A stretch of 64,000 nt of DNA from an uncultured Solirubrobacterales bacterium (GTDB lineage: Bacteria; Actinomycetota; Thermoleophilia; Solirubrobacterales; 70-9): NCBI GenBank assembly GCA_963698625.1, contig CAVORK010000003.1, forward strand, positions 411,317-475,316, in the 5' to 3' direction. The position numbers and the translations under genes were made by a program. The notes beneath the pieces were generated by a model. It was given only the letters and a program-made list of their open reading frames with translations, was not told where the DNA came from and ran no database searches. Of the stretch, positions 20,462-55,020 are shown piece after piece (positions within the stretch are counted from its first letter, which is position 1; every line of letters starts with the position of its first letter).

Positions 20462-20709
20462 CAGGAAATAACGATTCACTAAAGGTGGAGATGGGCAGCG
20501 ATTCGGCTCGGGTTGGCGGTGACGCCACAGACGAATCGCCATAGTGGCCCTGAGAACGGGTCGAGCCCAAGACCGTGTCTCCGAGTCTGTTGCCGGCTTT
20601 CCATGTTCATTTCATCGGCAACCGAACACTGGCAAGGATTTACTGAAACAAGCGAGAAAGCAATGAGTCAGGCACAGACTGCCATCGACTCGTGGGGGAT
20701 ACTGAAATT

Positions 20710-23700
20710 TTGAAATCTGGGAATCGTCTTGTCGTTCGTTTCACTGCGTTCATAGCCGTACTGGTCGCTGTGGCTGCCTTTGCGTTCGGTACCCAGTCGG
20801 CCACGGCCGACACGCCGGTCAGCTACGCCTCGGGATCCCTGATCATCCCGATGGACACCGATACGACGCTCAACCACACCGCTTACAACCAGAACCTGGG
20901 CATGTGGAAGGCGTTCGGACTGGTCAACCGGCTTCTTTCCAACGGCGTTCCGGTCAGATGGACCATCGATACGACCAAGACCACGACCACGACCGTGGAT
21001 TTCACGGCCAGCAGCGTCAAGGACCTGCGTACCAATACAGCGCTGGGCGGCTGGTCCTATAGAGGCGGACCGTTCGTCATCGACGCGGCCCACGCGACCG
21101 CGGCCAAGGCCCTCATAACAGCCTGGTGGGCCCAGAATTCAAACCTGCCCAACGTCCACGAGGCAAACAGCGCCTTCACCGCGGATTCTCCGGTCATTTT
21201 GCGCTCTCCGCCTCGCATTGCACAGGATGAAGCGAACGCCGGCATTACGATCGACTACTACAACGCTGCCGGGATCCCGGACTCCAACGGCAATGTCTGG
21301 ACAACCGACTCTCCCGGCGTGCTCGACGAAGCCGAGATCGCCAACGGAGACCTCTTCACCCAGGGTGCCTGCCTCGAGAAGCGCTTCGACACCTACGTAA
21401 CCCCGCACAACGGCGGATTCGGCTACTCGCTGACCGATACTGCCAACCTCGGCACCAGGGCTTACGCGCAGCTGGATACCTTCGTACATCAGGGCGGCGG
21501 CTGGACGGCTCTGTGCGCATCCATCGAAAACAACGAGAACGCTATCGCCGACCTCACTCTCAACGGCAACGCTGCCGTCAAGGCGCTTTTCAAGACATCG
21601 CTGCCCGGTGGCAAGCCCGGCGGCATGCTCACCCAGACCGGCTTCCCTGACATCAGCAACGGCGATGGCACGTGGGAGGTCAATCCTGCCAATGCCGACC
21701 TGCCTACCGCGCAGTTGGTCCCGACCACCGCGCCCAACGATCTGCCTGGCGGTTCGGTCCAGACCTGGCCTTCGCCCGGAAATCCGGACGCCCCGACCTA
21801 CTGGCCTGATACGGAAAGGGTCGCCTGGTTTGACGACGCCGGGGTCGAGAGCGATCACATCATCGCCGGCTCGTATCACGATGCAACCGGCCAGGGCAAG
21901 CTCACTTTCCTCGGCGGCCACCAGTACGACACGGACGTCCCGTATCTGGACAACGGAGAGGCTCCCTACCTGCGAGCTTTCTACAACTCGCTGTTCTTCA
22001 ACGGCACTGCGAAGCCGAAACTCGAGTTCTCCGCACCCACGACCTATCCGCAGAACGGCACCGGCAACATCCAGGCCAGCCTCAAGAACGTCGGTGGCAG
22101 CGTTGCCAACAACGTCAACAACACTACCGTCGTGCTGGAGCCCGGATTCACCTACGTAGGCACCACAAGCGGGCCGGCGCCCAGTGTCAGCGGTCAGACA
22201 CTGACCTGGTCCAGCCTTCCGGACATCCCCAGTGACGGCGAAGCAGTAACCGTCGAGCTCAGCGTCGGCCCCTCGATTTCTTCGACCACCGGCCAGAAGA
22301 AGATCGCCACGGTCAAGTCCGAGTACGGCGACCTCTTCGGCGAAGGCTTCACGGGCGTCTTCTGCCGTGAACTCACGGTCACGCCCACGCCGGTACCGAC
22401 CGTCACCAAGACGCCGCCCACCCAGGGTCCGGTTTCGCCGGGAACCCCGGTGACATGGACGATCAGCTACGGAAACACGGGTGCCGCGGCGCTGCTCAAC
22501 TCCGTGGTCGAAGACACCCTGCCCCCGGGATTCACTTACGTCTCCAGCTCCTCGTCGCCATCTCTCGGCGCTCCGACTGTGATTCCGGGCAGCCAGGTCA
22601 AGGTTCGCTGGAACAAAGGCACGATCAACGCAAATACGCCGAATTCCGGCACGGTGACGATCACCGCCAGGGCGGGCGCAGTGACCAACGGCAGCGGTGA
22701 CCCGCTTGCAGCAGACCTTCACCAATACCGGCGAGCTCCGCGGAATCGGTGCCGGAGATTTCACCTACTCGGATGAAGACACAGCGACCGTCGTCGTCGA
22801 GCAGGGAGCGCTCTCGCTCGGCAAGACGGCGAACAAGGCCTTCGTCACCCCGCCGGGTGACATCACCTACACACTGAGCCCGGACTTCAACTCGTCTGTA
22901 CAGCTCGACAACGTGCGTGTATTCGACCCGATTCCGGCCGGCGTGACTTCACCTCCGACCTCGATCGGCCAGGGCGGGACCTTCGGTCCTTACGTGCCGC
23001 TGCCAGCGGTTCCCGGAAACGACGCCGGACCACCGGTCCTTGATACGGCGATGAGCGTCAGCACCAATTTCCGCAACCAGGGCCAGTCGGTCACCGTCAC
23101 CCTGAACGTCAAGAGCAGTGTCGCGGTCCCGAACGTCACACCCAACATCACCGCCACCGGTGGCAATGAAGGTTGCGGTGCGCCGACGCCCGCCACCGCG
23201 AATGTCCCGGCGGGCGGCGTGGGAGTCAACTTCGTCTGGACCTGTACACCCGTCGACAACGGCGAATACACGTTCATCGGCGGAGCCGACGACGGCGTCG
23301 CCACGACCTGGCCTGCTGCGAGATCTTCGAGTGTTCTGGTGGTGCCGACCGGCGGCCCCGACGGAGTCCGCTGGAGCCTCGGCAGTACGACTGCGGAGAT
23401 CCCCGGCGAGATCATCAATTCCGGCTCCACCGAAGGCGTCTTCTCCTTCATCGGCGACGGAACCCAGACCTTCCGCAAGTTCGCTATCGGTACCAACAGC
23501 TGGGTCAACCGCACGAACGTGCCGTTGGCGGTCGATGCGGGCGGTGCGCTGGCCAGCGATGGAGTCGACACGGTCTACGGTATTCCAGGCGACAAAACGC
23601 AGAACTTCTACGCGTACAACGCGATCACCAACACCTGGACCGCCAGGGCGAATACCGGCGTGGACATGGACAATGGTGCCGCGCTCGTATACCTCAACGG

Positions 23701-26700
23701 ATTCGTCTATGCCACCGTTGGCAACAGCGACGAATTCCGGCGCTACAACGTCGGTACAAACAGCTGGGCGGCGCTGGCCGTAACGCCGGAGAACATCAAG
23801 GCCGGCGGAGCGCTCACGACCGACGGAACCTATGTCTACGCGCTGCGAGGAGACGGCAAGCCGGACATGTATCGGTACGACCCGGGAACGGACGCCTGGA
23901 CGACGATGGCGCCGCTGCCGCAGAATGTCAAGGACGGCGGAGCGATCACCCGGATCGGCGGCAACCTGTACGCGTGGACCGGTAACGGCAAGCAGTTCTT
24001 CTACCGCTACAGCATCTCCGGCAACAGCTGGACTGCTCTGGCCTCCACTCCGGCCCAGGTCAAGGGCGGCGGCGCGCTGACGACCGACGGCACGAACATC
24101 TACGGACTCCAGGGCAACGGACAGACGGTTTTCTGGAAATACACGGTCGCCACTGATACCTGGAGCACCCTGCCGGCGACCTCCGCCCAGGTGAAGGAAG
24201 GCGGTGCGCTCACCCACCTGCCCGACGCGGCCGTGACCGGTCAGTTCACCGACCTCAAGGTGAACAAGTCGATGGTCTCGAGCGGTGGACCGCTCTCTGT
24301 GGTGATCGAATTCAACGCCGATCCCGGCGTCAATAACGTCGTTCCCGGCGCCCTGACCACGACGGCAACCGGCGGCGCTTCCTGCTCGAGTCTGGTCGGT
24401 CCGACGCTGCTCTCGGCAAACGACGACATCACCGGCCCCGGCGATCCGGTCCGGTACGGCTGGACGTGCACGGTGGCCGCCGGTACCAACCCCGGCAGCC
24501 TCAAGTTCAGTGCCAACGGCAGCGGTGACGGGCCGACGCCCTTCCCGACTTCGACCTCCAACAGCTCGATCATCACCCCGCTGCTGACCTTCACCGTCGG
24601 CGTACCGAACGGTGCGCCGGACCCGGTTGACAATACGGCCGTGATCGGGGCAGTCGGGGTATCGGCTGCGTCGCCGACAGTCAGCGTCAACACCGGAAAC
24701 CCGGTCCTGTCGGTTACCAAGTCCAACAACCCCGGCCCACTCGCCATCCTGCGCCCGGGCGACGGCATCCAGTACACGATGGTCGTCGAGAACACCGGCA
24801 CAACGCCGGCCACCAACGCGACACTCACCGACCTCGTTCCCGCCCAGGTCAACTACGTCAACTGCACGGGAGGCACCTCCTGCAGCGAATCTGCCGGCAC
24901 GGTCACCTGGAACCTCGGAACGATCAATCCCGGCGGGTCCCAGACCGTCACCTTCACCGTGATCGCCAAGAGCGGTCTGGCCGTATCCGATACCGATTAC
25001 ACGATTTCCAACAAGGCCGTTATCGATTCCGATCAGACTTCTCCGGTCGACAGCAATACGGTGACCAACAAACTGCGTGTCCTGCCTACGGTGACTAAGG
25101 GAGTCTCCGATGTGGACGCCGTGGTCGGCCAGGTTCTGACCTACACGGTCAACGTCAACAACCCCGGCGCGGCATTCACCGCCACCGTGACCGATGCCAT
25201 CCCGGCGGGCGCCAGCTTCAACGGCACTGGCACGTGTTCCCCGGCCTGCACGTTCGGTTCAGGCACCGTCACCTGGGCCGCCCAGAACATTCCGGCCGGA
25301 GGACCGACCTCCTTCTCCTTCGACGTCACCGTGACCGGTGCTCCGGGGACCTCGGTCTTCAACGAAGCCGTACTCGACCCCTCGACGCCGAACCTCACCC
25401 CGATCACCAGCAACGAGACCGAGACCACGATCCTCGACCCGAACCTGGCGATCAACAAGTCCCATACCGGCAACTTCACCCAGGGCCAGACCGGTGCTAC
25501 CTACAACATCGAGGTCAGCAACAACGGCCCCGACCAGACCGAAGGACTTGTAACCGTCACCGACACCCTGCCGGCCGGCCTGACCGCCACCGCGATCAAC
25601 GGCACCGGCTGGACCTGCGTGCTCGGAACCCTGACCTGCACCCGCAGCGACCAGCTGAGCTCCGGCGACAGCTACCCGCCGATCACCCTGACAGTGGATG
25701 TCGCGGCCAACGCGCCGGCATCGGTGATCAACTCGGCCGCGGCAAGCGGCGGCGGCGATCCCACCCCGGTAACCGACAACGACCCCACCACCATCGACGG
25801 AGTCAACCTGGCGATCAACAAGTCCCACACCGGCGACTTCCGCCAGGGCCAGACCGGAGCCACCTACACGATCGAAGTCAGCAATAGCGGCCCGAGCGCG
25901 ACTTCGGGCACCGTCACCGTCACTGACGCCCTGCCGGCAGGCCTGACCGCCACGGCGATTGCCGGAACCGGCTGGACCTGCACCCTCGGCACCCTGACCT
26001 GTACGCGCAGCGATTCGCTGGCCAACGGTGCCAGCTACCCCGACATCACGCTGACGGTAAACGTGGCCAACAACGCCGGTACTCCGTTGACCAACTCGGC
26101 CACGGCCAGTGGCGGTGGAGATCCGACCCCGGTCACCGATGACGACCCGACCACTGTGCTCTCGACCAACCTGGCGATCAACAAGTCCCACACCGGCGAC
26201 TTCCGCCAGGGCCAGACCGGCGCCACCTACACGCTGGCCGTGACCAACAACGGCCCCGACGCCTCGACCGGACTGGTCACAGTCACCGACACCCTGCCGG
26301 CCGGTCTCACCGCCACCGCCATTTCCGGCACGGGCTGGACCTGTGTGCTCGGGACGCTGACCTGCACCCGCTCCGACGTCCTGGCCAACGGTGCCAGCTA
26401 CCCGGACATCACCCTGACCGTTGACGTCGCCAACAACGCCGGTACTCCGTTGACCAACTCGGCCACGGCCAGTGGCGGTGGAGATCCGACCCCGGTCACC
26501 GATGACGATCCGACCACTGTGCTCTCGACCAACCTGGCCATCAACAAGTCCCACACCGGCGACTTCCGCCAGGGCCAGACCGGTGCCCAGTACACGCTGG
26601 CCGTGACCAACAACGGCCCCGACGCCTCAACCGGCACGGTCACCGTCACCGACGCACTGCCAGTGGGTCTCACCGCCACCGCAATCAGCGGAACAGGCTG

Positions 26701-29700
26701 GACCTGTGTTCTCGGAACTCTCACCTGTACCCGTTCGGACTCCCTGGCCAACGGCGCCAGCTACCCCGATATCACGCTGACCGTTGACGTGGCAAACAAC
26801 GCCCCGGCCAGCGTCACCAACTCCGGCACCGTCTCCGGCGGTGGAGACCCGACGCCGAGCACCGCCAACGACCCGACGACCGTTCTGTCGACCAACCTGG
26901 TCATCAACAAGTCCCACACCGGAGACTTCCTCCAGGGCCAGACCGGCGCGCAGTACACGATCTCGGTCACCAACAACGGCCCCGACGCCTCAACCGGACT
27001 GGTCACGGTCACCGACGCCCTGCCGACCGGCCTCACCGCCACCGGCATCTCCGGTTCCGGCTGGAACTGTGTTCTCGGCACCCTGACTTGTACGCGCAGC
27101 GATTCGCTGGCCAACGGCGCCAGCTACCCCGACATCACGCTGACCGTCGACGTGGCTAACAACGCACCGGCCAGCGTCACCAACTCCGGCACCGTCTCCG
27201 GCGGCGGCGACCCGACACCGAGCACGGACGACGATCCGACCACCATCAAGAGCATCAACCTGGCGATTGCCAAGAGCCACACCGGCAACTTCCGTCAGGG
27301 CCAGACCGGTGCCACCTACATGATCGCCGTGACCAACAACGGCCCCGACGCAACCACCGGTCAGGTCACAGTCACCGACGCCCTGCCGGCCGGCCTCACC
27401 GCCACGGCAATCAGCGGCACCGGCTGGACCTGCAGCCTCGGAACCCTGACCTGTACGCGCAGCGATTCGCTGGCCAACGGCGCCAGCTACCCCGACATCA
27501 ACCTGACCGTCGACGTGGCGAACAACGCCCCGGCCAGCGTCACCAACTCGGCGACCGTCTCCGGCGGCGGCGACCCGACGCCCAGCACGGACGACGATCC
27601 GACCACCGTGCTCTCGACCAACCTGGCCATCAACAAGTCCCACACCGGCGACTTCCTCCAGGGCCAGACCGGCGCGCAGTACACGATCTCGGTCACCAAC
27701 AACGGTCCTGACGCCTCGACCGGCACGGTCACGGTCACCGACGCCCTGCCGACCGGCCTCACCGCCACGGCAATCAGCGGCACCGGCTGGACCTGTGTTC
27801 TCGGCACCCTGACTTGTACGCGCAGCGATTCGCTGGCCAACGGCGCCAGCTACCCCGACATCACCCTGACAGTTGACGTCGCCAACAATGCGCCGGCCAG
27901 CGTCACCAACTCCGGCACCGTCTCCGGCGGAGGAGACCCGACCCCGAGCACGGACGACGATCCGACCACCATCAAGAGCATCAACCTGGCGATTGCCAAG
28001 AGCCACACCGGCAACTTCCGACAGGGACAGACAGGCGCGCAGTACGCGGTGACAGTTACCAACAACGGCCCCGACGCAACTACCGGCCAGGTCTCTGTTA
28101 CCGACAGCCTGCCGACCGGCCTGACCGCCACCGCCATCGCCGGCACCGGCTGGAACTGTGTGCTCGGAACTCTCACATGTACCCGCTCGGATGTCCTGAC
28201 CAACGGTGCCAGCTACCCGAACATCGTCCTGACCGTCGACGTGGCCAACAACGCCCCGGCTTCGGTGACCAACTCCGCGACGGTCACCGGTGGCGGCGAC
28301 CCGACGCCGAGCACCGCCAACGACCCGACGACCGTTCTGTCGACCAACCTGGTCATCAACAAGTCCCACACCGGAGACTTCCTCCAGGGCCAGACCGGCG
28401 CGCAGTACACGATCTCGGTCACCAACAACGGCCCCGACGCCTCAACCGGACTGGTCACGGTCACCGACGCCCTGCCGACCGGCCTCACCGCCACCGGCAT
28501 CTCCGGTTCCGGCTGGAACTGTGTTCTCGGAACACTGACCTGTACCCGCTCGGACTCGCTGGCCAACGGCGCCAGCTACCCGGACATCATCCTGACGGTC
28601 AACGTTGCCAACAACGCCCCTGCCTCGGTTATCAACAGCTCGACCGTAAGCGGCGGCGGCGATCCGACGCCGGCCACCGACAACGACCCGACCACGATCC
28701 GCTCGATCAACCTGGCCATCGACAAGTCTCATACGGGCAACTTCACTCGCGGCCAGACTGGCGCCACCTACACGATTGCCAGTCACCAACAACGGCCCCG
28801 ATGCGACCTCCGGCCTCGTGACTGTGACTGACAACCTGCCCGCCGGCCTGACCGCCACCGCCATCGGCGGCAGCGGTTGGAGCTGCAGCCTCGGCACCCT
28901 GACCTGCACCCGTTCCGACTCCCTCGCCAACGGTGCCAGCTACCCGGACATCACCCTGACGGTCGACGTCGCGTCCAACGCGCCCTCCTCGGTGACCAAC
29001 TCCTCCACAGTCGCGGGCGGTGGAGACCCGACCCCGAGCACCGATGACGATCCGACCACGGTGATCGACCCGGCCACCCCGAACCTGATCATCAACAAGT
29101 CGCATACCGGCGACTTCACCCGCGGCCAGACCGGCGCCACCTACACGCTCGCCGTGACCAACCAGGGACCGGCAGCAACCACCGGCACCGTCACAGTCAC
29201 CGACGCCCTGCCGAGTGGCCTGACCGCCACCGCGATCGCCGGTACCGGCTGGAACTGCACGCTCGGAACGCTGACCTGCACCCGCTCCGACGTCCTGGCC
29301 AACGGCGCCAGCTACCCGGACATCACCTTGACGGTTGACGTAGCGGCGAACGCCCCCGCATCGGTGACCAACACCGGAACGGTCAGCGGCGGCGGCGACC
29401 CGACCCCGGCCAGCGACGACGATCCGACCAATATCCTCACGGCCAACCTGGCCATCGACAAGGCTCACACCGGCAACTTCCGCCAGGGCCAGACCGGCGC
29501 TCAGTACACGCTGGCAGTAACCAACAACGGACCGGCCGCAACCACCGGCACCGTCACGGTCACGGACACCCTGCCGGCTGGCCTCACCGCAACCGCGATC
29601 AACGGAACCGGCTGGAGCTGCGTCCTCGGCACCCTGACCTGCACCCGCTCGGACTCCCTGGCCAACGGCGCCAGCTACCCCGACATCACCCTGACCGTTG

Positions 29701-32700
29701 ACGTGGCAAACAACGCCCCGGCCAGCGTCACCAACTCGGGCACCGTCTCCGGCGGTGGCGACCCGACCCCGAGCACGGACGACGACCCGACCACCGTCCT
29801 GTCGACGAACCTTGCCATCGACAAGTCACACATCGGCGACTTCCGCCAGGGCCAGACCGGCGCGCAGTACACGATCTCGGTCACCAACACCGGCCCCGAT
29901 CCGACTGCTGGTCAGGTTTCGGTCACCGACGCCCTGCCGGCCGGCCTGACCGCAACCGCGATCAACGGCACCGGCTGGACCTGTGTTCTCGGCACCCTGA
30001 CCTGTACCCGCAGCGACGTACTGGCTGCGAACGCCAGCTACCCGAACATCACCCTGACCGTGGACGTGGCGAACAATGCCCCGGCAACTGTGATCCAGAG
30101 CGCGACTGTCTCCGGCGGCGGCGATCCGACGCCGAGCACGGACGACGACCCGACCACCGTCAAGAGCATCAACCTGGCGATCAACAAGTCCCATACCGGC
30201 GACTTCCGCCAGGGCCAGACCGGCGCCACCTACACGCTGGCGGTAACCAATAACGGCCCCGACGCATCGACCGGCACGGTCACAGTCACCGACGCACTGC
30301 CCGCAGGCCTGACCGCCACCGCGATCGCCGGAACCGGCTGGACCTGCACCCTCGGCACACTTACCTGCACCCGTTCGGACTCCCTGGCCAACGGCGCCAG
30401 CTACCCGGACATCAACCTGACCGTCGACGTTGCCAACAACGCGCCGGCTTCAGTGACAAACAGCGGGACCGTCTCAGGCGGCGGCGACCCGACTCCGAGT
30501 ACGGACGACGACCCGACCACTGTGCTCTCAACCAACCTGGCCATCAACAAGTCCCACACCGGCGACTTCCGCCAGGGCCAGACCGGTGCCCAGTACACGC
30601 TGGCCGTGACCAACAACGGCCCCGACGCCTCAACCGGCACGGTCACAGTCACCGACGCACTGCCAGTGGGTCTCACCGCCACCGCAATCAGCGGAACAGG
30701 CTGGACCTGTGTTCTCGGAACGCTGACTTGTACCCGTTCCGACGTCTTGGCCAACGGCGCCAGTTACCCCGACATCACCCTGACCGTCGACGTGGCCAAC
30801 AACGCCCCGGCCAGCGTCACCAACTCGGGCACCGTCTCCGGCGGTGGAGACCCGACCCCGAGCACGGACGACGACCCGACCACCGTGCTCTCGACCAACC
30901 TGGCGATCAGCAAGTCCCACACCGGCGACTTCATCCAGGGCCAGACCGGCGCCACCTACACGCTGGCCGTGACCAACAACGGCCCCGACGCCTCGACCGG
31001 CACCGTCACCGTCACCGACGCACTGCCGGCCGGCCTGACCGCAACCGCGATCAGCGGCAACCGGCTGGACCTGTGTGCTCGGCACCCTGACCTGTACCCG
31101 CTCGGACTCGCTGGCCAACGGCGCCAGCTACCCCGACATCACGCTGACCGTTGACGTCGCCAACAACGCACCGGCCAGCGTCACCAACTCCGGCACCGTC
31201 TCCGGCGGTGGAGACCCGACCCCGAGCACGGACGACGATCCGACCGCGATCAAGAGCATCAACCTGGCGATCGACAAGTCCCACACCGGCAACTTCACAC
31301 AGGGCCAGACCGGCGCGCAGTACACGATTTCGGTCAGCAACACCGGCCCCGATCCGACTGTTGGTCAGGTTTCGGTCACCGATGCCCTGCCAGTAGGCCT
31401 CACCGCCACAGCCATTAACGGCAGCGGCTGGAACTGCACGCTCGGAACCCTGACCTGTACCCGTAGCGACGTACTGGCTGCGAACGCCAGCTACCCGAAC
31501 ATCACGCTGACGGTCAATGTCGCCAACAACGCCGGCAGCCCGCTGGTCAACTCGGCGACCGTTTCCGGCGGCGGCGACCCGACCCCGTCCACCGACGACG
31601 ACCCGACTGTCGTGCGCTCGGTCAACCTCGCAATCGACAAGTCCCACACCGGAGACTTCACGCAGGGCCAGGTCGGGGCCGAGTACACGATTTCGGTCAC
31701 CAACAATGGCCCTGACAGCACGTCAGGCCAGGTCTCTGTCACGGATGCGCTGCCGAGCGGCCTGATCGCAACCGCGATCAACGGCACCGGCTGGAACTGT
31801 GTACTTGGAACGCTGACCTGCACGCGCTCCGACGTCCTGCCGGCCAGCACCAGCTACCCGGATATCACCCTGACTGTGGACGTTGCCAACAACGCGCCGG
31901 CTTCAGTGATCCAGAGCGCGACCGTTTCCGGCGGCGGAGACCCGACCCCGAGCACCGACGACGATCCGACCACGATCAAGAGCATCAACCTGGCGATCAA
32001 CAAGTCGCACACCGGCAACTTCACCCGCGGCCAGACCGGCGCCACCTACACGATTGCCGTCACCAACAACGGCCCCGACGCAACCACCGGTCAGGTCACC
32101 GTCACCGACACCCTGCCGGCAGGCCTGACCGCAACCGCTATCAACGGAACCGGCTGGAGCTGCACGCTCGGAACGCTGACCTGCACCCGCTCGGACTCCC
32201 TGGCCAACGGTGCCAGCTACCCCGACATCACTCTGACCGTCGACGTCGCAGCCAACGCGCCTTCGAGTGTCATCAACTCCGCGACCGCCTCGGGCGGCGG
32301 CGATCCGACCCCGGTCACCGACAACGACCCGACCACGGTGATCGACCCGGCCACGCCGAACCTGATCATCAACAAGTCGCATACCGGCGACTTCACCCGC
32401 GGCCAGACCGGCGCCACGTACACGCTCGCCGTGACCAACAACGGCCCGCCCGCCACCAGCGGCACCGTGACCGTCACCGACACCCTGCCGAGCGGTCTGA
32501 CCGCCACCGCGATTGCCGGAACCGGCTGGAACTGCACGCTCGGAACGCTGACCTGCACCCGCAGCGACTCGCTCGCCGCCGGCAACAGCTACCCGGACAT
32601 CACCTTGACGGTTGACGTAGCGGCGAACGCCCCCGCATCGGTGACGAACACCGGAACGGTCAGCGGCGGCGGCGATCCGACCCCGGACAGCGATGATGAC

Positions 32701-35700
32701 CAGACCAACATTCTCACGGCCAACCTGGCCATCGACAAGGCTCACACCGGCAACTTCCGCCAGGGCCAGACCGGCGCTCAGTACACGCTGGCAGTAACCA
32801 ACAACGGGCCGGCCGCAACCACCGGCACCGTCACGGTCACGGACACCCTGCCGGCTGGCCTGACCGCAACCGCGATCAACGGCACCGGCTGGAACTGCGT
32901 GCTCGGCACCCTGACCTGCACCCGCTCGGACTCCCTGGCGAACGGTGCCAGCTACCCGAACATCGTTCTGACGGTCGACGTCGCCAACAACGCCCCGGCC
33001 AGCGTCACCAACTCCGCCACCGCTTCGGGCGGCGGCGATCCCACTCCGACCACCGATAACGATCCGACCATCATCCTGTCGACCAACCTGGCCATCGACA
33101 AGGCTCACACCGGCGACTTCATCCAGGGTCAGACCGGCGCGCAGTACACGATCTCGGTCACCAACAACGGCCCCGATCCGACCGTCGGACAGGTCTCGGT
33201 CACCGACAACCTGCCGACCGGCCTGACCGCCACCGCGATCAGCGGCACCGGCTGGACCTGTGTTCTCGGAACCCTGACCTGCACGCGCTCCGATGTGCTC
33301 GCCGCCAACGCCAGCTACCCGGACATCACCCTGACTGTGGATGTCGCCAACGACGCGCCGGCAACTGTGATCCAGAGCGCGACCGTCTCCGGCGGTGGCG
33401 ACCCGACCCCGAGCACCGACGACGACCCGACCACGGTCAAGAGCATCAACCTGGCCATCGACAAGTCGCACACCGGCGACTTCCGTCAGGGCCAGACGGG
33501 TGCCCAGTACACGATCTCCGTGACGAACAATGGTCCCGACGCCTCGACCGGCCTCGTGGCGGTCACGGATGCCCTGCCGCCCGGCCTGACCGCCACCGCG
33601 ATCACCGGAACCGGCTGGACCTGCACGCTCGGAACCCTGACCTGCACCCGCTCGGACTCGCTGGCCAACGGCGCCAGCTACCCGAACATCACCCTGACTG
33701 TGAACGTCGCCAACAACGCTCCGGCTTCGGTCATCAACTCCTCCACCGTCAGCGGCGGAGGAGACCCGACTCCGAGTACGGACAACGATCCGACCGTGGT
33801 CCGCTCGATCAACCTCGCGATCAACAAGAGCCATACCGGCAACTTCACCCAGGGCCAGACCGGCGCGCAGTACACGCTCTCGGTCACCAACAACGGCCCC
33901 GATTCCTCGACCGGACTGGTCACAGTCACCGACACCCTGCCGGCCGGCCTCACCGCAACCGCGATCAACGGAACCGGCTGGAGCTGCGTGCTCGCCACCC
34001 TGACCTGCACCCGCTCCGACGTCCTGGCCAACGGCGCCAGCTACCCCGACATCACCCTGACAGTCGACGTCGCCAACAACGCCCCGGCCAGCGTCACCAA
34101 CTCCGGCACCGTCTCCGGCGGCGGCGATCCGACTCCGAGCACCGACGACGATCCGACCACCATTGACACCGACGTCAATCTCGCCATCAACAAGAGCCAT
34201 ACAGGTGACTTCACCCAGGGACAGACCGGTGCCTCGTACACCCTGGCCGTCACCAACAACGGTCCGAGTGCGACAACCGGACTGGTCACAGTCACCGACA
34301 CCCTGCCGGCCGGCCTCACCGCAACCGCGATCAACGGAACCGGTTGGAGCTGCGTGCTCGCCACCCTGACCTGCACCCGCTCCGACGTCCTGGCCAACGG
34401 CGCCAGTTACCCGACGATCACCCTGACCGTCGACGTTGCCAACAACGCCCCGGCGTCAGTCACCAACTCCGGCACAGTCACCGGCGGTGGAGACCCGACC
34501 CCGAGCACAGACGACGACCCGACCACGGTCAAGAGCATCAACCTCGCGATCGACAAGTCCCACACCGGCAACTTCACCCGCGGCCAGACCGGCGCCACCT
34601 ACACAATCGCCGTCACCAACAACGGTCCCGACGCAACCACCGGTCAGGTCACAGTCACCGACACCCTGCCGGCCGGCCTGACCGCAACCGCGATCACCGG
34701 AACCGGCTGGAACTGCACGCTCGGAACACTGACCTGCACCCGCTCGGACTCCCTGGCCAACGGCGCCAGCTACCCGGACATCACGATGACCGTCAACGTC
34801 GCAGCCAACGCTCCGTCGAGCGTCATCAACTCCGCGACGGTCTCCGGCGGCGGCGACCCGACCCCGGCCACCGATAACGATCCGACCACGGTGATCGACC
34901 CGGCCACCCCGAACCTGACGATCAACAAGTCCCACACCGGCAACTTCCGCCAGGGCCAGACCGGAGCCACCTACACGCTGGCCGTGACCAACAACGGCCC
35001 GCCCGCCACCACCGGCACCGTCACAGTCACCGACACCCTGCCGGCCGGCCTCACCGCAACCGCGATCAACGGAACCGGCTGGAGCTGCGTCCTCGGCACC
35101 CTGACCTGCACCCGCTCGGACTCCCTGGCCAACGGCGCCAGCTACCCGCCGATCACCCTGACCGTCGACGTTGCCAACAACGCCCCGGCGTCAGTCACCA
35201 ACTCCGGCACAGTCACCGGAGGCGGCGACCCGACCCCGGATACCTCGGACGACCCGACCACGGTGCTCTCAACCAGCCTGGCGATCAACAAGTCCCATAG
35301 CGGTGACTTCACCCAGGGCCAGACCGGCGCGCACCTACACGCTCTCGGTCACCAACAACGGTCCCGATTCCTCGACCGGACTGGTCACAGTCACCGACAC
35401 CCTGCCGGCAGGCCTCACCGCAACCGCGATCAACGGAACCGGCTGGAACTGCGTGCTCGCAACCCTGACCTGCACCCGCTCCGACGTCCTGGCCAACGGC
35501 GCCAGCTACCCCGACATCACCCTGACCGTCGACGTCGCCAACAACGCCCCGGCTTCAGTCACCAACTCCGGCACAGTCACCGGCGGCGGAGACCCGACCC
35601 CGAGCACCGACGACGACCCGACCACGGTCAAGAGCATCAACCTCGCGATCGACAAGTCCCACACCGGCAACTTCACCCGCGGCCAGACCGGCGCCACCTA

Positions 35701-38700
35701 CACAATCGCCGTCACCAACAACGGTCCCGACGCAACCACCGGTCAGGTCACAGTCACCGACACCCTGCCGGCCGGCCTGACCGCAACCGCGATCACCGGA
35801 ACCGGCTGGAGCTGCACGCTCGGAACACTCACCTGCACCCGCTCGGACTCCCTGGCCAACGGCGCCAGCTACCCGGACATCACGATGACCGTCAACGTCG
35901 CAGCCAACGCTCCGTCGAGCGTCATCAACTCCGCGACGGTCTCCGGCGGCGGCGACCCGACCCCGGCCACCGATAACGATCCGACCACGGTGATCGACCC
36001 GGCCACCCCGAACCTGACGATCAACAAGTCCCACACCGGCAACTTCCGCCAGGGCCAGACCGGCGCCACCTACACGCTGGCGGTGACCAACAACGGCCCG
36101 CCCGCCACCACCGGCACCGTCACCGTCACCGACACCCTGCCGGCAGGCCTCACCGCAACCGCGATCAACGGAACCGGCTGGAGCTGCGTCCTCGGCACCC
36201 TGACCTGCACCCGCTCGGACTCCCTGGCCAACGGCGCCAGCTACCCCGACATCACCCTGACCGTCGACGTCGCCAACAACGCACCGGCCAGCCGTCACCA
36301 ACTCCGGCACAGTTACCGGAGGCGGCGATCCGACCCCGGATACCTCCGACGACCCGACCACGGTGCTCTCGACCAACCTGGCGATCAACAAGTCCCATAC
36401 CGGTGACTTCACCCAGGGCCAGACCGGCGCGCACCTACACGCTCTCGGTCACCAACAACGGCCCCGATTCCTCGACCGGACTGGTCACAGTCACCGACAC
36501 CCTGCCGGCCGGCCTCACCGCCACCGCGATCAACGGAACCGGCTGGAACTGCGTGCTCGGCACACTGACCTGCACCCGCTCCGACTCCCTGGCCAACGGC
36601 GCCAGCTACCCGCGACGATCACCCTGACGGTCGACGTCGCCAACAACGCCCCGGCGTCAGTCACCAACTCCGGCACAGTCACCGGCGGCGGAGACCCGAC
36701 CCCGAGCACCGACGACGACCCGACCACGGTCAAGAGCATCAACCTCGCGATCAACAAGTCCCACACCGGTGACTTCACCCAGGGCCAGACCGGTGCGCAC
36801 GTACACGATCACGGTTTCGAACAACGGGCCGGATTCGACTATCGGCCTCGTCACCGTGACCGACACCCTGCCCGCCGGCCTGACCGCCACCGCGATTGGC
36901 GGAACCGGCTGGAGCTGCACGCTGGCCACACTCACCTGCACCCGCTCCAACTCGCTGGGGATCGGCAACAACTACCCGACGATCACCATGACGGTCGATG
37001 TGGCGGCCAACGCTCCGGCATCGATCATCAACACCGCCACAGTCTCCGGCGGCGGCGATCCGACCCCGGCCACCGATGACGATCCGACGACTGTCATTCC
37101 GACAGCACCCGATGTGAACCTCTCGATCGAGAAGTCACACACCGGCAACTTCACCCAGGGCCAGGTCGGAGCCACCTACACGATCCAGGTCACGAACGAC
37201 GGGCCCGACGCCACCACCGGTCTGGTGACGGTGACGGACAACCTGCCCGCCGGCCTGACCGCGACAGCGATCACCGGAACCGGCTGGAACTGCGTGCTCG
37301 CCACCCTGACCTGCACCCGCTCCAACACCCTCGGCGCGGGCAACGACTACCCGCCGATCACCCTGACTGTGAACGTCGCGGCGAACGCACCGGCATCGGT
37401 CATCCAGCGGGCGACCGTCAGCGGAGGCGGCGATCCGACCGACAGCGAAGATGAGGATCCGACCACGATCGTGCCCACCGGCAGCGACGTCAACCTTGCG
37501 ATCGACAAGTCCCACACCGGCAACTTCACCCAGGGCCAGACCGGAGCCACCTACACGATCCAGGTCAGCAACAACGGACCTGACTCGACGAGCCGGTCAG
37601 GTATCGGTCACCGACTCCCTGCCCGCAGGCCTGACCGCAACCGCCATCGGCGGCAAGGGCTGGAGCTGTGCTCTGGCCACCCTGACCTGCACCCGCTCGA
37701 ACACGCTGGGGACCGGCAACAACTACCCGCCGATCACCCTCACGGTTGACGTGGCAGCCGATGCCCCGGCATCGGTGGTCAACAGCGCCACCGTCTCCGG
37801 CGGTGGCGATCCGACCCCGGCTACCGATAACGATCCGACCACGATCGAGCCCGAAACGCTGGACGTCAACCTCTCGATCGAGAAGTCACACACCGGCGAC
37901 TTCGCCCAGGGCGAGATCGGCGCGACCTACTCGATCGTCGTTTCCAACGACGGCCCCGACGCAACGGCCGGTCTGGTCACCGTGACCGACACCCTGCCGA
38001 CCGGCTTGACCGCGACGGCGATCACCGGTAGCGGTTGGAACTGTGTGCTCGCCACCCTGACCTGCACCCGTTCGAACACGCTCTCGGTCGGCAACGACTA
38101 CCCGACGATCACGCTGACCGTCGATGTTGCCGCTGACGCACCGGCCTCTGTGGTCCAGCGCGCCACTGTCACCGGTGGCGGCGATCCCGACCCGACCCCG
38201 GTAGACGACCCGACCACGATCATCCCCTCGGACCTCACCGCGGACCTGGCGCTGACGAAGTCGGCACCTGCCACCGCGAAGGTCGGAGACCAGTTCGCCT
38301 ACACGATGGTCGTCGAGAACAAGGGTCCGGCCACGGCGACCGATGTCGAGATCGCCGACCCGCTTCCGACGGGGCTCACCTTCGTCTCTTCGGCTGACTG
38401 CAACGCGGTCATGGTCTGCAACCTCGGATCCATTGCGTCGGGCGACAGCAGGACGGTTGAAGTGACCGTCGAAGCCACCGATGTGACAGCCGGCACGACG
38501 GTCGTCAACACGGCGGTTGTCAACGCCGAGGAGTTCGATCCGAACCCCGACGACAACACTGCCACTGCTGAGACCGACATCGATCCGTTGTCCGATCTCA
38601 AGGTGACCAAGACCGGTCCCGCGTCCATCCAGGCCGGCAGCACAATCGGCTGGGAAATCCTGGTTGAAAACGCCGGTCCGAGCGCGGCCGAGGACGTCGA

Positions 38701-39724
38701 AATGGACGACCCGCTGCCCGCCGGACTGACCAACCCCACGGTCACGACCGAACAGGGAACCTGCGATCTCACCGTCAGCTGCTCACTCGGCACGATCCCG
38801 GCGAACGGTTCGGTGCTCGTCCTCATTGAAGCTGACATCCCGGCCGACGCAGTTGTCGGAAGCACGGTCAGCAACACGGTCACGGTGACTACCACCACTG
38901 ATGACAAGGATCCTGATGACAACACGTCTACTTCGACCACGACTGTGTCGCCGCCCACTCCGGGCAAGGCGGAGATCGCGATCACCAAGAAGCTCAGCAA
39001 CCAGAAGGTCACCCTGGGTGACATCGTCACCTTCAAGCTGACCGCCAGAAACAGCGGCGACGCTGCGGCGAAGAACGTCGTGATCAAGGACACCCTGAGC
39101 TCCAAGCTGAAGTACGTCAGCTCGAAGATCCCGGGCGGCAACTGCTCGGTCCAGGGCGCAACCGTCACCTGCAAGGTGTCGAAGCTGGCCGCCGGCAAGT
39201 CAGTGACCGCGACGATCAAAGCGCGGGCGATCGAGCCTGGGCAGGTGGCCAATACCGGCACAATCCAGGCCGACGACAGCAAGATCACGAAGCGCAAGTC
39301 GACTATCAAGTTCCCGGTCGACAAGGGCCAGACGAAGATCGGCATCGTCAAGACCGCCCTACGCAAGAAGACCAGGGATGGCAGCCGGGTCTCGTTCCGT
39401 ATCGAGATCACCAACCTGACCAACCAGGCAGCTACGGATGTCGAGATCTGCGACATCCTGCCGGGCAAGACCACGATCATCCGGTCCAAGGAAGGACGCA
39501 AGATGTCCGGAGGCAAGCTCTGCTGGACAATCGACTACCTGCCCGGTGGAGCCGTGCGGGGTGCATGGGTGACCCTCAGGGTTGACAACTTCACCTCACT
39601 GGATGAGCTGACCAACATCGGAACGGTCACTGCCGGCAATACGAAGGGCAAGAAGAAGTCGTCGGCAAAGGTGAAGCTGGTCCAGCGGACCAGCTCGGCA
39701 CGAGGCGGCGGTGTCACCGGTTAG
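20710..39724 (+). CDS. giant secreted surface protein B (~6330 aa). Order: signal peptide, head type 1, Kelch-like propeller, DUF11 domains, 35 x 121-aa repeats, 4 DUF11 domains (the last two lysine-rich). About 9 frame breaks in this sequence.
   Basis: The ORF opens at 20692. TTG 20710 gives MKSGNRLVVRFTAFIAVLVAVAAFAFGTQSATA, which is residue-for-residue parallel to the gene A N-terminus. ORF pieces 20692..22776, 22697..28831 (2044 aa), 28776..31154, 31075..35976, 35171..36406, 36363..37079, 36769..37749 and 37451..39724 are contiguous in protein sequence. Indels lie at about 22708, 28781, 31060, 35332, 36292, 36432, 36612 (+2), 36798 and 37592. DUF11-like signatures include ..LSVTKSNNPGPLAILRPGDGIQYTMVVENTGTTPATNATLTDLVPAQV... 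Confidence 0.8.
23435..24216 (+). other. Kelch-like six-bladed beta-propeller region within gene B (the equivalent region in gene A is ~14270-15060)
   Basis: Six ~45-aa repeats of the pattern GGAL.TDG..[IV]YAL.G.G...F..Y.....W. Examples: GGALTTDGTYVYALRGDGKPDMYRYDPGTDAWTTMAPLPQNVKD and GGALTTDGTNIYGLQGNGQTVFWKYTVATDTWSTLPATSAQVKE. Confidence 0.65.
25442..38242 (+). repeat. tandem array of 35 x ~363-bp coding repeats (121-125-aa CX6C unit) inside gene B, with higher-order duplications
   Basis: Unit starts are at 25442, 25805, 26168, 26531, 26894, 27257, 27620, 27983, 28346, 28709, 29082, 29445, 29808, 30171, 30534, 30897, 31261, 31624, 31987, 32359, 32722, 33085, 33448, 33811, 34177, 34540, 34912, 35275, 35639, 36011, 36375, 36741, 37117, 37492 and 37868. 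The array ends where ..DLALTKSAP.. begins at 38243. Confidence 0.9.
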
Positions 39725-40445
39725 CAGGATTCTGAGCGCCGCCCTGGTCCTGTCAGCACTCTGGCTGGGCCCGGTCGGCGTGGCTTCAGCCGGCACCACG
39801 GCCAACTACACGGGCGTGACCGGCAAGAGCTCCTGGTCGGCGCGCATCATGATTCGGACGAAGGCCTGGAGCCGGCCGGGCAACCGGGGTCGTGTCCGGA
39901 CGACCCTGCAGACGCAGTCAACCTGGGCCAAGGGTCCCCAGCACCTTCTGGTTCTGAACTCGGCCCAGGTGAAAGGCAGGACCTGGATCAAGGTCCGCCT
40001 GGCCTCCCGGCCCAACGCCGCTTCGGCCTGGATCCCTGCGAACCGCGCCCGGGTGGTCCGGAATCCGTGGCGGGTTCTGATCTCGAGGGGGGACCGCAAG
40101 GTGACTGTTTTCAAGTCGGGCAAGCCGGTGGTCAGGTTCCGGTCCGTTATCGGTGCCCCTGAGACTCCGACGCCCAAGGGTCTCTTCGCGATCTACGAAA
40201 AGGTGAGGCAGGTGCCTTCAAACGGCTTCCTCGGCCCGTTCGCTCTACACCTGACCGCGCATTCGAACGTGCTCGACAATTACGGGGGAGGCCCCGGGCG
40301 GGTCGCAATCCATGGCCGCGACGGCCTGTCCCTGCTCGACCCGCTCGGCACGGCACGTTCCCACGGCTGCATTCGGGTCAACAACAGCAGGATCAGGTTC
40401 CTGGCGAAGAAGCTGCCACTCGGCACCCCGGTGAGGATCCGCTAG
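39711..40445 (+). CDS. secreted L,D-transpeptidase (YkuD domain) with an N-terminal SH3-like region, overlapping the end of gene B
   Basis: GTG at 39711 with GAGG at 39702-39705. It overlaps the gene B stop (39722-39724) by 14 nt. Signal peptide ..ILSAALVLSALWLGPVGVASA. Catalytic motif ..IHGRDGLSLLDPLGTARSHGCIRVNN.. (the SHGC[IV]R signature of YkuD enzymes). Confidence 0.85.
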   Translation: MSPVSRILSAALVLSALWLGPVGVASAGTTANYTGVTGKSSWSARIMIRTKAWSRPGNRGRVRTTLQTQSTWAKGPQHLLVLNSAQVKGRTWIKVRLASRPNAASAWIPANRARVVRNPWRVLISRGDRKVTVFKSGKPVVRFRSVIGAPETPTPKGLFAIYEKVRQVPSNGFLGPFALHLTAHSNVLDNYGGGPGRVAIHGRDGLSLLDPLGTARSHGCIRVNNSRIRFLAKKLPLGTPVRIR

Positions 40446-40525: not shown

Positions 40526-40737
40526 GGAAAATCCCGTACCTTCACTTGATTGGTGAAAAAGGGAGACGGGTGGGAATTCCGTGAGCACCGGCCTCAACGC
40601 CGGGATGGAATCCGCAAAAACGCCCTGAAGACTGCGAATGCTCACCGAGCAGTCATCCTGGCCCCTGAAGGCTTTCCCACTACTTTCGAGAATCCAAGGG
40701 TAATGTTGAGGTCTTTCGGAAGGTTTTGGCGTCTGTG

Positions 40738-43700
40738 ATGTCCAAAAGGAAAATCTCGGAGAACAAATTGAAGTCCGTCGCCCGTACTGCCATCCGTTTC
40801 GCGCCAGTCATTGCGGTTCTCGCCGCTGGCCTGGCGGCGGCTGCTCCCGCTCAGGCGGATCGTGCTTTCAGCTTGCGTTTCTCGGCTACTGAAGCCGGAA
40901 GCATCGGCGGCATCGCCAACAGCAACATGAGCTGCTCCACGGCCAGTGGCGATTTTGGAGCCAGCACCTGTGTGGATGCCCGCAACGCCGCCGTCACTGA
41001 CTCGGTCGACAGCTCTACCAACTGGCGGAACAACAACGCGCACACGATGACTTACGTCGATGTGGATGGCGTGGCTTCAACCTTCAACTCGTCGTCGGCG
41101 AATCAGTCGCTTCCTGCGGGCTCGACGATTCTCTATGCAGCCCTCTATTGGGGAGGGCACTATGCCGGTGCCACCAGCCCCGCCAATCAGAACATTCGCG
41201 ACCAGGTGAAGTTCAGGGTCCCCGGTGCTACGGGCTATCAGACAGTTACTGCTTCCACTGTTGATGACGGGGTCGGCGGCAATGCCGGGCGGTATCAGGC
41301 ATTCGCCAATGTGACCAGTCTGGTGCAAACGCTGCCGAATTCCGGCAACGGGACATACACCGTCGCCGACATTCAGTCTGCGGTCGGTAGCGACCGCTAC
41401 TCGGGATGGAGCCTGATCGTCTCCTACAAGAACCCCTCCGAGACCGTAAAGAACATGACGATCTATGACGGCCTGGTTTCGATTTCAGGAACGACGACGG
41501 CCGACATTCCGATTTCCGGCTTCCTCACTCCGCCAGCCGGTCCGGTCAACGCTGAGGTGGGCTTCGTGGCCTGGGAAGGTGACCTGGCCCTGATCGGTGA
41601 TCGGGCGCAGCTCAATGGTCAGTTCCTGTCTGACGCGCAGCATCCGTCGAACAACTTCTTCAATTCCAGAATCTCCCAGAACGGAGTCCTGTTCACCGAT
41701 CGAAATCCGTCGTACCCGAATTCACTCGGTATGGATGCGCTCCGTACTCCGGCCCCGGCGGGGTCGGTCACCAACTCGCAGACTTCGGCGACGGTGAGGG
41801 TCCGCAGTGACGGTGATTTCTACCTGCCAGGGGTCATCACTTTCCAGGTCGAGGTCTACTCACCGAAGGTTGACCAGCTGAAGTCGGTGGTCGATGACAA
41901 CGGCGGTGTTGTCGAGCAAGGCGACACCCTTACCTACAAGATCTCCGGCAAGAACAATGGCCTGGACGGCACGGCCAACTTCGTGCTGAGAGACCCGATC
42001 CCGCCGAACACGACTTACGTGCCCGGTTCGATCAACGTGGTCAAGAATACGAATGCTTCCACCGGAGTCCGGACTGACGCGTTCGCTGACGACATCGCCG
42101 AGTTCGACTCTCCCAACAACCGGATCATCGCTCGCCTCGGTGAAGGATCAAATGCCTCAACCGGAGGCAACGTCAAGCCAGGCAATGAATACGAGGTGAC
42201 CTTCAAGGTCAAGGTCAATGGACCGAGTCCGAACCCGGTGGCAAACGACACCGTCCTGACCAATACGGCGACCGCAAGCTTCCTGAGCCAGACGACGTCA
42301 AGCCCGCTGAACACAGCTTCGACGGTGGATGCGACCGTCAAGACTCCGGACTTGACGATCAACAAGTCGCATTCCGGAAACTTCCGCCAGGGCCAGACGG
42401 GCGCCCAGTACTCCCTCGCGGTGACCAACCAGGGCCCGGCCGGCACAAACGGCCAGGTCAGCGTCACCGACAACCTGCCGACCGGCCTGACCGCCACCGC
42501 CATTTCCGGCACCGGCTGGAACTGCGTGCTCGCATCTCTGACCTGCACCCGCTCGGACGTCCTGGCCGCCAACGCCAGCTACCCGCCGATCACGATGACC
42601 GTCAATGTGGCCAACAACGCGCCTGCTTCGGTGATCAACAGCGGAACGGTGAGCGGCGGTGGAGACCCCACCCCGAGCACGGCCAACGATCCGACCACCA
42701 TCCTCAGCACCAACCTGGTCATCGACAAGTCCCATACCGGTGACTTCCGCCAGGGACAGACGGGTGCCACCTACACGCTGGCCGTGACCAACAGCGGCCC
42801 GGACCCGACAACCGGAACCGTCACCGTCACCGACGCCCTGCCCGCAGGCCTCACAGCCACCGCGATCAGCGGAACCGGCTGGAACTGCGTGCTCGCAACT
42901 CTGACCTGCACCCGCTCGGACGTCCTGGCAGCCAACGCCAGCTACCCGCCGATCACGATGACCGTCAATGTGGCCAACAACGCGCCGGCATCGGTGATCA
43001 ACGGCGGAACGGTGAGCGGCGGCGGCGATCCGACCCCGAGCACCGACAACGATCCGACCACGATCAAGTCGATCAATCTCGTGATTGCCAAGAGCCATAC
43101 CGGCAACTTCCGCCAGAGCCAGACCGGCGCCCAGTACACGATCGCGGTCACCAATAGCGGACCCGATCCGACCCAGGGCCAGGTCTCAGTCACCGACACC
43201 CTGCCGACCGGCCTGACCGCCACCGCGATCAGCGGCACCGGCTGGAACTGCACGCTCGCAACCCTGACCTGCACCCGCTCGGACGTCCTGGCCGCCAACG
43301 CGAGTTACCCGAACATCACGATGACCGTGAACGTGGCCAACGACGCGCCGGCCAGCGTCGTCAACTCCGGCACCGTTACCGGCGGTGGAGACCCCACCCC
43401 GAGCACGGCCAACGATCCGACCACGATCCTCAGCACCAACCTGGTCATCGACAAGAGTCATAGCGGCAACTTCACCCAGGGCCAGACCGGGGCTCACGTA
43501 CACACTCTCGGTCACCAACAGCGGCCCCGACGCCTCGACCGGCCTCGTGACCGTGACGGACTCGCTGCCGGCCGGTCTGACCGCCACCGCAATAGGCGGC
43601 ACCGGCTGGAACTGCACCCTTGCCACGCTGACCTGCACCCGAAGCGACGCACTGGCCGCCAACGCCAGCTACCCGAACATCACCCTGACCGTCAACGTCG

Positions 43701-54995: not shown

Positions 54996-55020
54996 CCATC
55001 TGCGTCACATTCAGTTTGGA

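Follow-up and report, generated by a model that had tools for sequence, protein, structure and literature searches.

Recurrent pairing of a YkuD-family L,D-transpeptidase with exported proteins ending in Thr-Gly: a candidate wall-sorting system in Actinomycetota

How could a giant surface protein be held on the wall of a bacterium in whose genome no sortase was found? The sortase/LPXTG route is the established way of fixing proteins covalently to the wall in monoderm bacteria. The question is raised by a stretch of 64,000 nucleotides (hereafter the window) from an uncultured Solirubrobacterales bacterium, an actinobacterium of the class Thermoleophilia (assembly GCA_963698625.1, contig CAVORK010000003.1, positions 411,317 to 475,316 of the forward strand), which carries genes for giant surface proteins, here called A to D, and directly after gene B a gene for an L,D-transpeptidase (LDT). 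An earlier note on this DNA had suggested that the LDT is tied to gene B and attaches the lysine-rich end of its product, and possibly the ends of the products of A, C and D, to peptidoglycan. We report here that relatives of this LDT recurrently stand next to genes whose products, like that of gene B, end in Thr-Gly (TG), and we propose what such an end might be for.

A search for the sortase family PF04203 gave no match in the window's genome, which comprises 2.44 Mb in 8 contigs, is 89.5% complete and holds five YkuD genes. Among 24 other genomes of the genus a sortase was found in one, as against 11 of 16 in other families of the order. Judged by these searches, the genus seems to be without sortase.

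Genes for proteins ending in Thr-Gly next to the transpeptidase

A pair was defined as a gene for a secreted protein ending in [VFIY]-T-G-stop, located directly upstream of and on the same strand as a gene for a two-domain LDT (an N-terminal beta domain followed by a YkuD catalytic domain), with a few nucleotides between the two or an overlap. The pair in the window has this form, with the codons for VTG at 39713-39721, the stop codon at 39722-39724 and the LDT start at 39711. Species-representative genomes were scanned with an alignment of the LDT, which returned 255 relatives; the loci around the best 80 were kept and 79 of them were usable. In all homologous loci fetched from the same genus the LDT gene immediately followed, on the same strand, an open reading frame (ORF) ending in VTG, the endings being GRVTRVTG, GKKTPVTG, ARRPTPVTG, ARRETPVTG, ARRVTPVTG, RPKRVPVTG and KKKKVPVTG, and in a genome from another family of the order the upstream ORF ended in RRGPSQFTG. 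Over all genome loci an ORF ending in [VF]TG (in one case FAG) was found directly upstream of the LDT gene in 33/79, and in about nine further loci a TG-ended ORF was directly downstream or divergent.

These endings were concentrated at the LDT gene. Among 3,814 ORFs in the genome loci 45 ended in [VFIL]TG, and 43 of the 45 adjoined the LDT gene; the remaining two were LDTs that themselves end in ITG, from an uncultured Intrasporangiaceae and a Frankia sp., and these may be a coincidence or substrates of their own kind. As a background, all stop-to-stop ORFs of at least 100 amino acids in the window's genome were examined and 15 out of 12,140 (about 0.1%) ended in [VFIL]TG. As a negative control, 30 loci around housekeeping YkuD genes of the same relatives were examined and only 1 of 1,069 ORFs ended in [VFILY]TG; this ORF ends just upstream of the control LDT and seems to be read in the wrong frame. 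Replication came from metagenome contigs of the Joint Genome Institute (JGI), where a TG-ended ORF was located upstream in 38/64 evaluable loci, including a locus with an LDT 79% identical to that of the window, in which the upstream ORF is unbroken over at least 1309 amino acids and ends in AARGGGVTG. The pairing spans Thermoleophilia, Acidimicrobiia, Microbacteriaceae and Paraconexibacter. Taken together, the conserved gene order strongly supports a functional link between the LDT and its presumed substrate. The view of the earlier note that the LDT is tied to gene B and is no bystander was thus borne out, and the adjacency was found not to be unique to this genome.

Two trivial origins of the VTG ending were considered and rejected. 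The ending could be forced by the overlap with the start codon or the ribosome-binding site of the LDT gene; in many loci, however, the partner's stop codon precedes both, and VTG is kept where LDT start and partner stop do not overlap. Alternatively, substrate and LDT could be made as a fused protein by read-through, but in low-GC Acidimicrobiales loci the two genes are about 70-85 nt apart. In-frame arrangements make up about one third of the loci, which is the share given by chance.

The partners belong to unrelated families, and their sole common feature is the T-G at the extreme C-terminus. In Thermoleophilia they are DUF11 giants, in Paraconexibacter Ferritin_2 (PF13668) proteins, in Microbacteriaceae (Glaciihabitans, Subtercola vilae) proteins of 350-414 amino acids with no Pfam or NCBIfam match, and in Acidimicrobiia small acidic proteins with lysine-free tails, e.g. 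DDPIEGSPLFTG and PRPGVPNFTG. The sizes range from 221 amino acids to thousands of residues, and all partners inspected have signal peptides. Gly at the last position (0) and Thr at position -1 were found in 71/71 distinct tails, while position -2 was V in 52, F in 16, I in 2 and Y in 1 of them. Positions -3 and -4 were mostly G or P, many tails reading P-V-T-G, and position -6 was R or K in 46/71 tails, mostly Arg. Lysine occurred within the last 15 residues in 31/76 tails and is not conserved; a Microbacteriaceae tail without any nearby lysine is NRAATFTG. In an alignment of 24 DUF11-type C-termini including that of gene B (A3), an Ig-like (immunoglobulin-like) domain is followed by a variable linker of 8-12 residues and then VTG, and the only invariant columns are the terminal V, T and G.

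Differences between neighbouring genes point in the same direction. In Paraconexibacter (L080:4185-5606 and L083) Ferritin_2 genes occur in tandem, and only the copy adjoining the LDT gene has an extension, which consists of a linker of about 20 Ala/Ser/Pro/Gly residues and ends in SVTG; the tandem twin ends in ...ATGFIQ. Similarly, gene B is the only one in the window that ends in VTG, and genes A, C and D are without it. These contrasts within loci fit a putative transferable signal.

The LDT family is much wider than the set of pairs. A profile of the two-domain LDT matched 1,431 representative clusters at E <=1e-30 and 83 of 301 evenly drawn Actinomycetota genomes; two genomes in the latter tally (G127 and G087) are unpublished, their publication needing the permission of the depositors, and no other claim makes use of them. 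When 80 LDTs were placed in a tree, those linked to TG fell into many clades, interspersed with others for which no TG neighbour was detected. In one large actinobacterial family the two-domain LDT gene is located directly after a gene ending in ...YYCPKCQS, with no TG partner (13 loci); this ending presumably resembles the zinc-finger end of Fpg/Nei-type glycosylases.

The transpeptidase, the end of gene B and the state of the locus

By sequence and predicted structure the 244-residue protein is a secreted YkuD-family LDT that falls outside the Lpp-anchoring equivalogs and is no sortase. Residues 121-243 match the Pfam family YkuD, PF03734 (E 4.6e-19, 69.9 bits, cut-off 23.4), and the catalytic signature is intact (H201, then S217-H218-G219-C220-I-R-V-N-N); in two alignments of LDT homologues (A1 and A2) the His, SHGC, Arg and second Asn of the pattern H-x16-SHGC-x-R-x-x-N were invariant. 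An AlphaFold2 (AF2) model built with 33 homologues had the LDT fold with a mean predicted local distance difference test (pLDDT) score of 91. Its best Foldseek matches were YkuD (1y7m and 4a1i), LdtMt1, LdtMt2 and Ldtfm, and the nearest solved structure was Bacillus subtilis YkuD 1y7m (sequence E 1.8e-21, Foldseek E 1.9e-8). The NCBIfam equivalogs of Escherichia coli LDTs (PRK10260, PRK10190 and LdtE) gave only 15-19 bits with cut-offs of 480-583, and NCBIfam contained no model specific to this LDT subfamily or to the partner tails. By inspection, the first 27 residues (MSPVSRILSAALVLSALWLGPVGVASA) resemble a signal peptide with the site ASA|G, and the N-termini of the homologues in the alignment are hydrophobic too. 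The approximately 80 residues between the signal peptide and the catalytic domain form beta strands in the model (pLDDT >90) and carry the conserved motif W..VRL..RPN...WIP (A1 and A2); a Foldseek search against the PDB gave no specific fold match for this domain, the catalytic domain alone being clearly matched.

The gene B product ends in ...NTKGKKKSSAKVKLVQRTSSARGGGVTG (..ARGGGVTG), without LPXTG or a hydrophobic tail and with nothing after the terminal Gly. The LDT gene starts with GTG within the end of gene B, the frame of which is closed by TAG, giving an overlap of 14 nt (coordinates are given in Table 1). Here the sequence agrees with the earlier note, which had described the LDT with its SHGCIRVNN motif, the GTG, the GAGG, the overlap and the absence of an LPXTG or hydrophobic end from gene B. 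In an AF2 model of the last 130 residues of gene B a beta-sandwich was formed by residues 3-116 (pLDDT mostly >90), and the last 14 residues were unstructured (pLDDT about 55), which predicts a flexible tail. The lysine-rich segment KGKKKSSAKVK is located 17-27 residues from the C-terminus. A short-read metagenome contig spans the junction between the two genes (39597-39821) with 1 mismatch and no gap, and the junction is therefore no peculiarity of the assembly. Between 39400 and 40900 a scan of the + strand for terminators and promoters gave nothing above the shuffled expectation. A complex prediction with the mature LDT and the last domain and tail of gene B gave no answer (score 0.00), which weighs neither for nor against binding.

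Table 1. Features of gene B and of the adjoining LDT gene, in positions of the window
Feature	Position	Strand	Description and basis
Gene B	20692..39724	+	giant surface protein with DUF11 repeats, secreted; about 6,300 codons when the frame breaks (at least 7) are read through
Gene B ORF pieces	20692-22776, 22697-28831, 28776-31154, 31075-35976	+	
Gene B ORF pieces, continued	35171-36406, 36363-37079, 36769-37749, 37451-39724	+	
C-terminal part of gene B: last Ig-like domain (DUF11-type) and tail	39332..39721	+	AF2; alignment A3
Flexible 14-residue tail (QRTSSARGGGVTG region) presenting the C-terminus	39680..39721	+	predicted, AF2
GAGG ribosome-binding site of LDT gene	39702..39705	+	inside gene B, 5 nt before GTG; from sequence
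LDT gene	39711..40445	+	244 aa; start inside gene B end, 14 nt overlap
LDT signal peptide	39711..39791	+	residues 1-27, ASA before G; sequence inspection
Codons for V-T-G, last three residues of gene B	39713..39721	+	proposed sorting/recognition signal [VF]TG-COOH
LDT N-terminal all-beta domain	39828..40070	+	about residues 40-120; alignments A1, A2; AF2
YkuD catalytic domain	40071..40439	+	residues 121-243; PF03734
SHGC with catalytic cysteine Cys220	40359..40370	+	sequence and alignment

A signal peptide was recognized by inspection at the start of gene B, and the last piece of the gene matched DUF11 (PF01345; E 6e-93, 6 stretches) and TIGR01451 (E 1.5e-41). The earlier note had treated gene B as one giant ORF, which does not hold for the assembly, where it is split into at least 8 overlapping ORFs. 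Genes C and D are cut likewise, and all breaks in B, C and D (window 20692-55100) are +1 frame shifts. The breaks that could be mapped against paralogous repeats, in genes B and C, corresponded to single extra bases at non-homopolymer sites (e.g. 28781, 31060, 35331, 36291, 36431, 36797, 44891 and 45331); those in gene D could not be mapped and were left out of the indel mapping. Short-read contigs from soil and sediment lack a single base at each of 36292/36294 and 36431, and two at 36614, with the qualification that the region is repetitive and that these contigs may stem from other repeat copies or from relatives. The matches to the metagenome runs were small (shares <=0.19, soil and sediment), and the contigs were used for the junction and three indel sites alone. 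The closest metagenome relative has 72-78% DNA identity and is too divergent for a frameshift check at the level of bases. Unbroken ORFs of at least 1309 to 1968 codons are present at the position of gene B in relatives, and the ordinary genes in the window are intact, unlike the giant DUF11 genes. Given that the breaks share the +1 direction, that short-read contigs omit bases and that relatives have unbroken ORFs, the frame breaks are probably long-read consensus errors in near-identical repeats rather than signs of pseudogenisation.

The extension of the anchoring idea to genes A, C and D, as put forward in the earlier note, was not supported by the comparison; these genes share a different C-terminal module. 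This module of about 420 amino acids (…DPNLEHLLDVQK.EAQIDLE…) is located at 18857-20398, 46615-47904 and 53660-55000 and ends in a Lys/Arg-rich beta-like tail, ...KKLVRVRR or ...KKLVRIKR, without VTG; it had no Pfam match and no usable hit in the ESM Atlas. Gene C (40726-44010) starts 280 nt after the LDT gene and has a signal peptide of its own, followed by an N-terminal domain of about 380 amino acids with no Pfam match, a TIGR04226 isopeptide-type domain (E 1e-13) and DUF11 repeats.

In the window's genome 10 of 12,140 ORFs end in VTG and three of these are DUF11 surface proteins, each of which precedes an LDT gene of the same subfamily: the pair in the window, one on contig C7 and one on contig C2, where the LDT is decayed. 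On C2 (25749-34196) a 2175-residue DUF11 ORF with a gene-D-like N-terminus is followed by a piece ending in ...NNSARGGGVTG, which shares its last eight residues with gene B. Only the last 45-60 or so residues of the C2 LDT remnant are recognisable, with SHGRIRV in place of the active-site motif (Cys to Arg), and housekeeping genes follow. Judged from this arrangement, the VTG protein of C2 would depend on an LDT encoded elsewhere. On C7 (1094158-1101000) a frameshifted DUF11 gene ending in ...GGGNTPVTG overlaps the LDT gene, which is followed by a gene for a LuxR-type helix-turn-helix regulator and then by a second LDT paralogue; in relatives, this second type of LDT has its own partner ending in ...RRPTPVTG.

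Proposed chemistry and alternative explanations

We propose that the LDT is dedicated to the exported protein encoded upstream of it, that it reads this protein through the flexible [VF]-Thr-Gly-COOH tail, and that it cleaves between Thr and Gly and joins the Thr to the wall; for this reading, built on gene order and tail conservation, we consider the case evenly balanced. More tentatively, and with somewhat more doubt than belief, we suggest that the pairs constitute a new sorting system of Actinomycetota, in which a lineage of YkuD LDTs serves as a sortase analogue and Thr-Gly-COOH as a pseudo-stem-peptide acyl donor, with Gly cleaved off and Thr ligated to peptidoglycan. In such a scheme Thr-Gly-COOH would imitate the end of the tetrapeptide stem, in which an L-centre is joined to D-Ala (meso-diaminopimelic acid (mDAP)-D-Ala). 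We infer this mimicry because Gly is achiral and YkuD-fold enzymes handle Gly at position 4: E. coli LdtD puts Gly in the place of D-Ala4, and mDAP-Gly is cleaved by DpaA, an enzyme with the YkuD fold (PMC8263019). That the protein must stop exactly at Gly suggests that the enzyme reads the free carboxylate. Cys220 would attack the Thr-Gly bond, Gly would leave and a protein-Thr thioester would form, which could then be resolved by a peptidoglycan amine, e.g. the one left free on the diamino acid at position 3. The end product would be a protein amide-linked to the wall via its C-terminal Thr.

Several points weigh against this proposal. Approximately 40-55% of the close LDT relatives are without a TG neighbour (some of these loci are truncated or hold second tandem copies), and in an even sample of the phylum a TG neighbour was present in 2 of 25 evaluable top loci, most LDT genes of that sample being located after a gene ending in ...CPKCQS. 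Given the 2/25, the two-domain LDTs as a family are not bound to TG ends alone. The partnership therefore appears to be a trait of particular lineages, above all of the closest relatives of the window's LDT, and not of the whole LDT family. On the chemical side, all protein attachments known so far to be made by LDTs have the protein as amine acceptor and the stem as donor (PMC8263019). A protein as acyl donor of an LDT would be unprecedented, and Thr is no diamino acid, so that its fit in the donor site is putative. Finally, gene B is frameshifted in this assembly.

The alternative closest to known biochemistry, and the one favoured in the earlier note, is that the LDT takes up a tetrapeptide stem as acyl-enzyme and passes it on to a lysine in the tail of gene B, at the epsilon-amine, as with Lpp, in which case VTG would be a docking motif. 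Transfer of the stem to an amine of the protein is the only experimentally established LDT protein attachment (PMC8263019), and the Thermoleophilia tails are indeed rich in Lys and Arg, with KGKKKSSAKVK in gene B and R or K at -6 in 46/71. However, lysine is present within the last 15 residues of 31/76 tails only, whereas T-G is found in 71/71, position -6 is mostly Arg, which is no acceptor, and Acidimicrobiia (DDPIEGSPLFTG) and Microbacteriaceae (NRAATFTG) have tails without a nearby lysine. In addition, an acceptor model does not need an invariant TG at a free C-terminus, and the low scores of the LDT with the E. coli equivalogs (15-19 bits, cut-offs 480-583) set it far apart from the enzymes known to act in this way. 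Lysine linkage as proposed in the earlier note thus appears unlikely. It is distinctly improbable, in our view, that the LDT instead links TG-ended proteins with one another, or with some other protein, in a pilus- or sheath-like structure, with a lysine of the next subunit resolving the Thr acyl. Pilus sortases polymerise their subunits in this manner with LPXTG, the Thermoleophilia tails are Lys-rich and matches to the isopeptide-forming fimbrial domain TIGR04226 were found in genes C and D (E 1e-10 to 1e-13) and B (7e-5), but Ferritin_2 and the small acidic partners are not pilin-like and no conserved acceptor lysine motif was seen in the tails.

Other explanations do without any ligation of the partner. 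The LDT could be a carboxypeptidase that trims Gly and so controls maturation or release, or it could make 3-3 cross-links locally, opening or repairing peptidoglycan at the site of insertion of the partner; pure hydrolases with a YkuD fold exist (DpaA), and LDTs of the same family without a TG neighbour presumably act on peptidoglycan. Local remodelling would leave the invariant TG-COOH unexplained on partners that range from 221 amino acids to thousands, and for trimming alone there is no obvious gain from an arrangement with one enzyme per substrate. We therefore regard both variants as improbable. A last explanation would be that the LDT is an ordinary cross-linker of peptidoglycan and stands in a locus of surface proteins by chance, and it is true that the genome has five YkuD genes and that short gene overlaps are common. 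We give this hardly any credence, because the pairing was found in 33/79 and 38/64 loci compared with a background of about 0.1% and 1/1,069 control ORFs, and because the partners are unrelated and come from several classes.

Significance and comparison with known systems

With the conserved pairing, the retention of giant adhesin-like proteins on the cell would be explained for a soil genus in which no sortase was found in 24 of the 25 genomes searched, and the known C-terminal sorting signals would be joined by a new one. If the donor model is true, this would be the first LDT with a protein donor, the chemistry of LDTs would be widened and the TG end could yield a minimal ligation tag of three residues. 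For annotation, the pairing would provide a rule for hundreds of "hypothetical" LDT/surface-protein pairs. L,D-transpeptidases are carbapenem targets, and the cultured carriers of the pair (Solirubrobacter deserti CPCC 204708, Patulibacter defluvii DM4, Paraconexibacter sp. AEG42_29, Subtercola vilae DB165 and Glaciihabitans sp.) make the idea directly testable.

Both protein tethering by LDTs and C-terminal sorting signals are already known kinds of system. To our knowledge, LDTs have been described as tethering proteins in Gram-negative bacteria, and in all those cases the protein is the acceptor. A full-text literature search returned no LDT paired with TG-ended proteins; most subscription journals lie outside its coverage and a prior description is possible.

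A close functional parallel is Lpp with LdtA, LdtB and LdtC (ErfK, YbiS and YcfS), where a YkuD-fold Cys transpeptidase likewise ties a specific envelope protein through a C-terminal determinant (PMC8263019). In Lpp, however, the determinant is a C-terminal lysine, the epsilon-amine of which is the acceptor, whereas the proteins described here end in Thr-Gly; the host is a proteobacterium in the one case and an actinobacterium of the class Thermoleophilia in the other, in which the genes are adjacent with one enzyme per substrate. LDTs also attach proteins other than Lpp to the stem, as with outer-membrane beta-barrels and LimB in Alphaproteobacteria and Coxiella (PMC8263019); these links are made via an N-terminal Gly or Ala or an internal Lys, and neither a C-terminal TG signal nor gene pairing has been described for them. 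DpaA (LdtF), a YkuD-fold amidase and mDAP-Gly carboxypeptidase, shows that a YkuD site accepts an L-centre followed by Gly-COOH, but its activity is hydrolytic, directed at muropeptides and the Lpp link, and it has no TG-ended partner. With B. subtilis YkuD (1y7m) and the mycobacterial and enterococcal LDTs the window's LDT shares the catalytic motif, and its subfamily differs from these in a distinct N-terminal beta domain that replaces the LysM or Ig-like domains and in conserved insertions around the active site (..YDGGPG.. and ..ASL.DPLG..).

With sortase and LPXTG the proposed system would have in common a Cys transpeptidase, a C-terminal signal, a putative T|G scissile bond and a Thr-amide product. 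The likeness of P-V-T-G to the PXTG core is a resemblance and no test of this. The enzyme has a YkuD and not a PF04203 fold, and the signal is different in that it presents a free Gly carboxylate, lacks the hydrophobic segment and charged tail and has no Leu at -4. Furthermore, whereas sortase serves substrates dispersed over the genome, the genes for enzyme and substrate are here paired locally.

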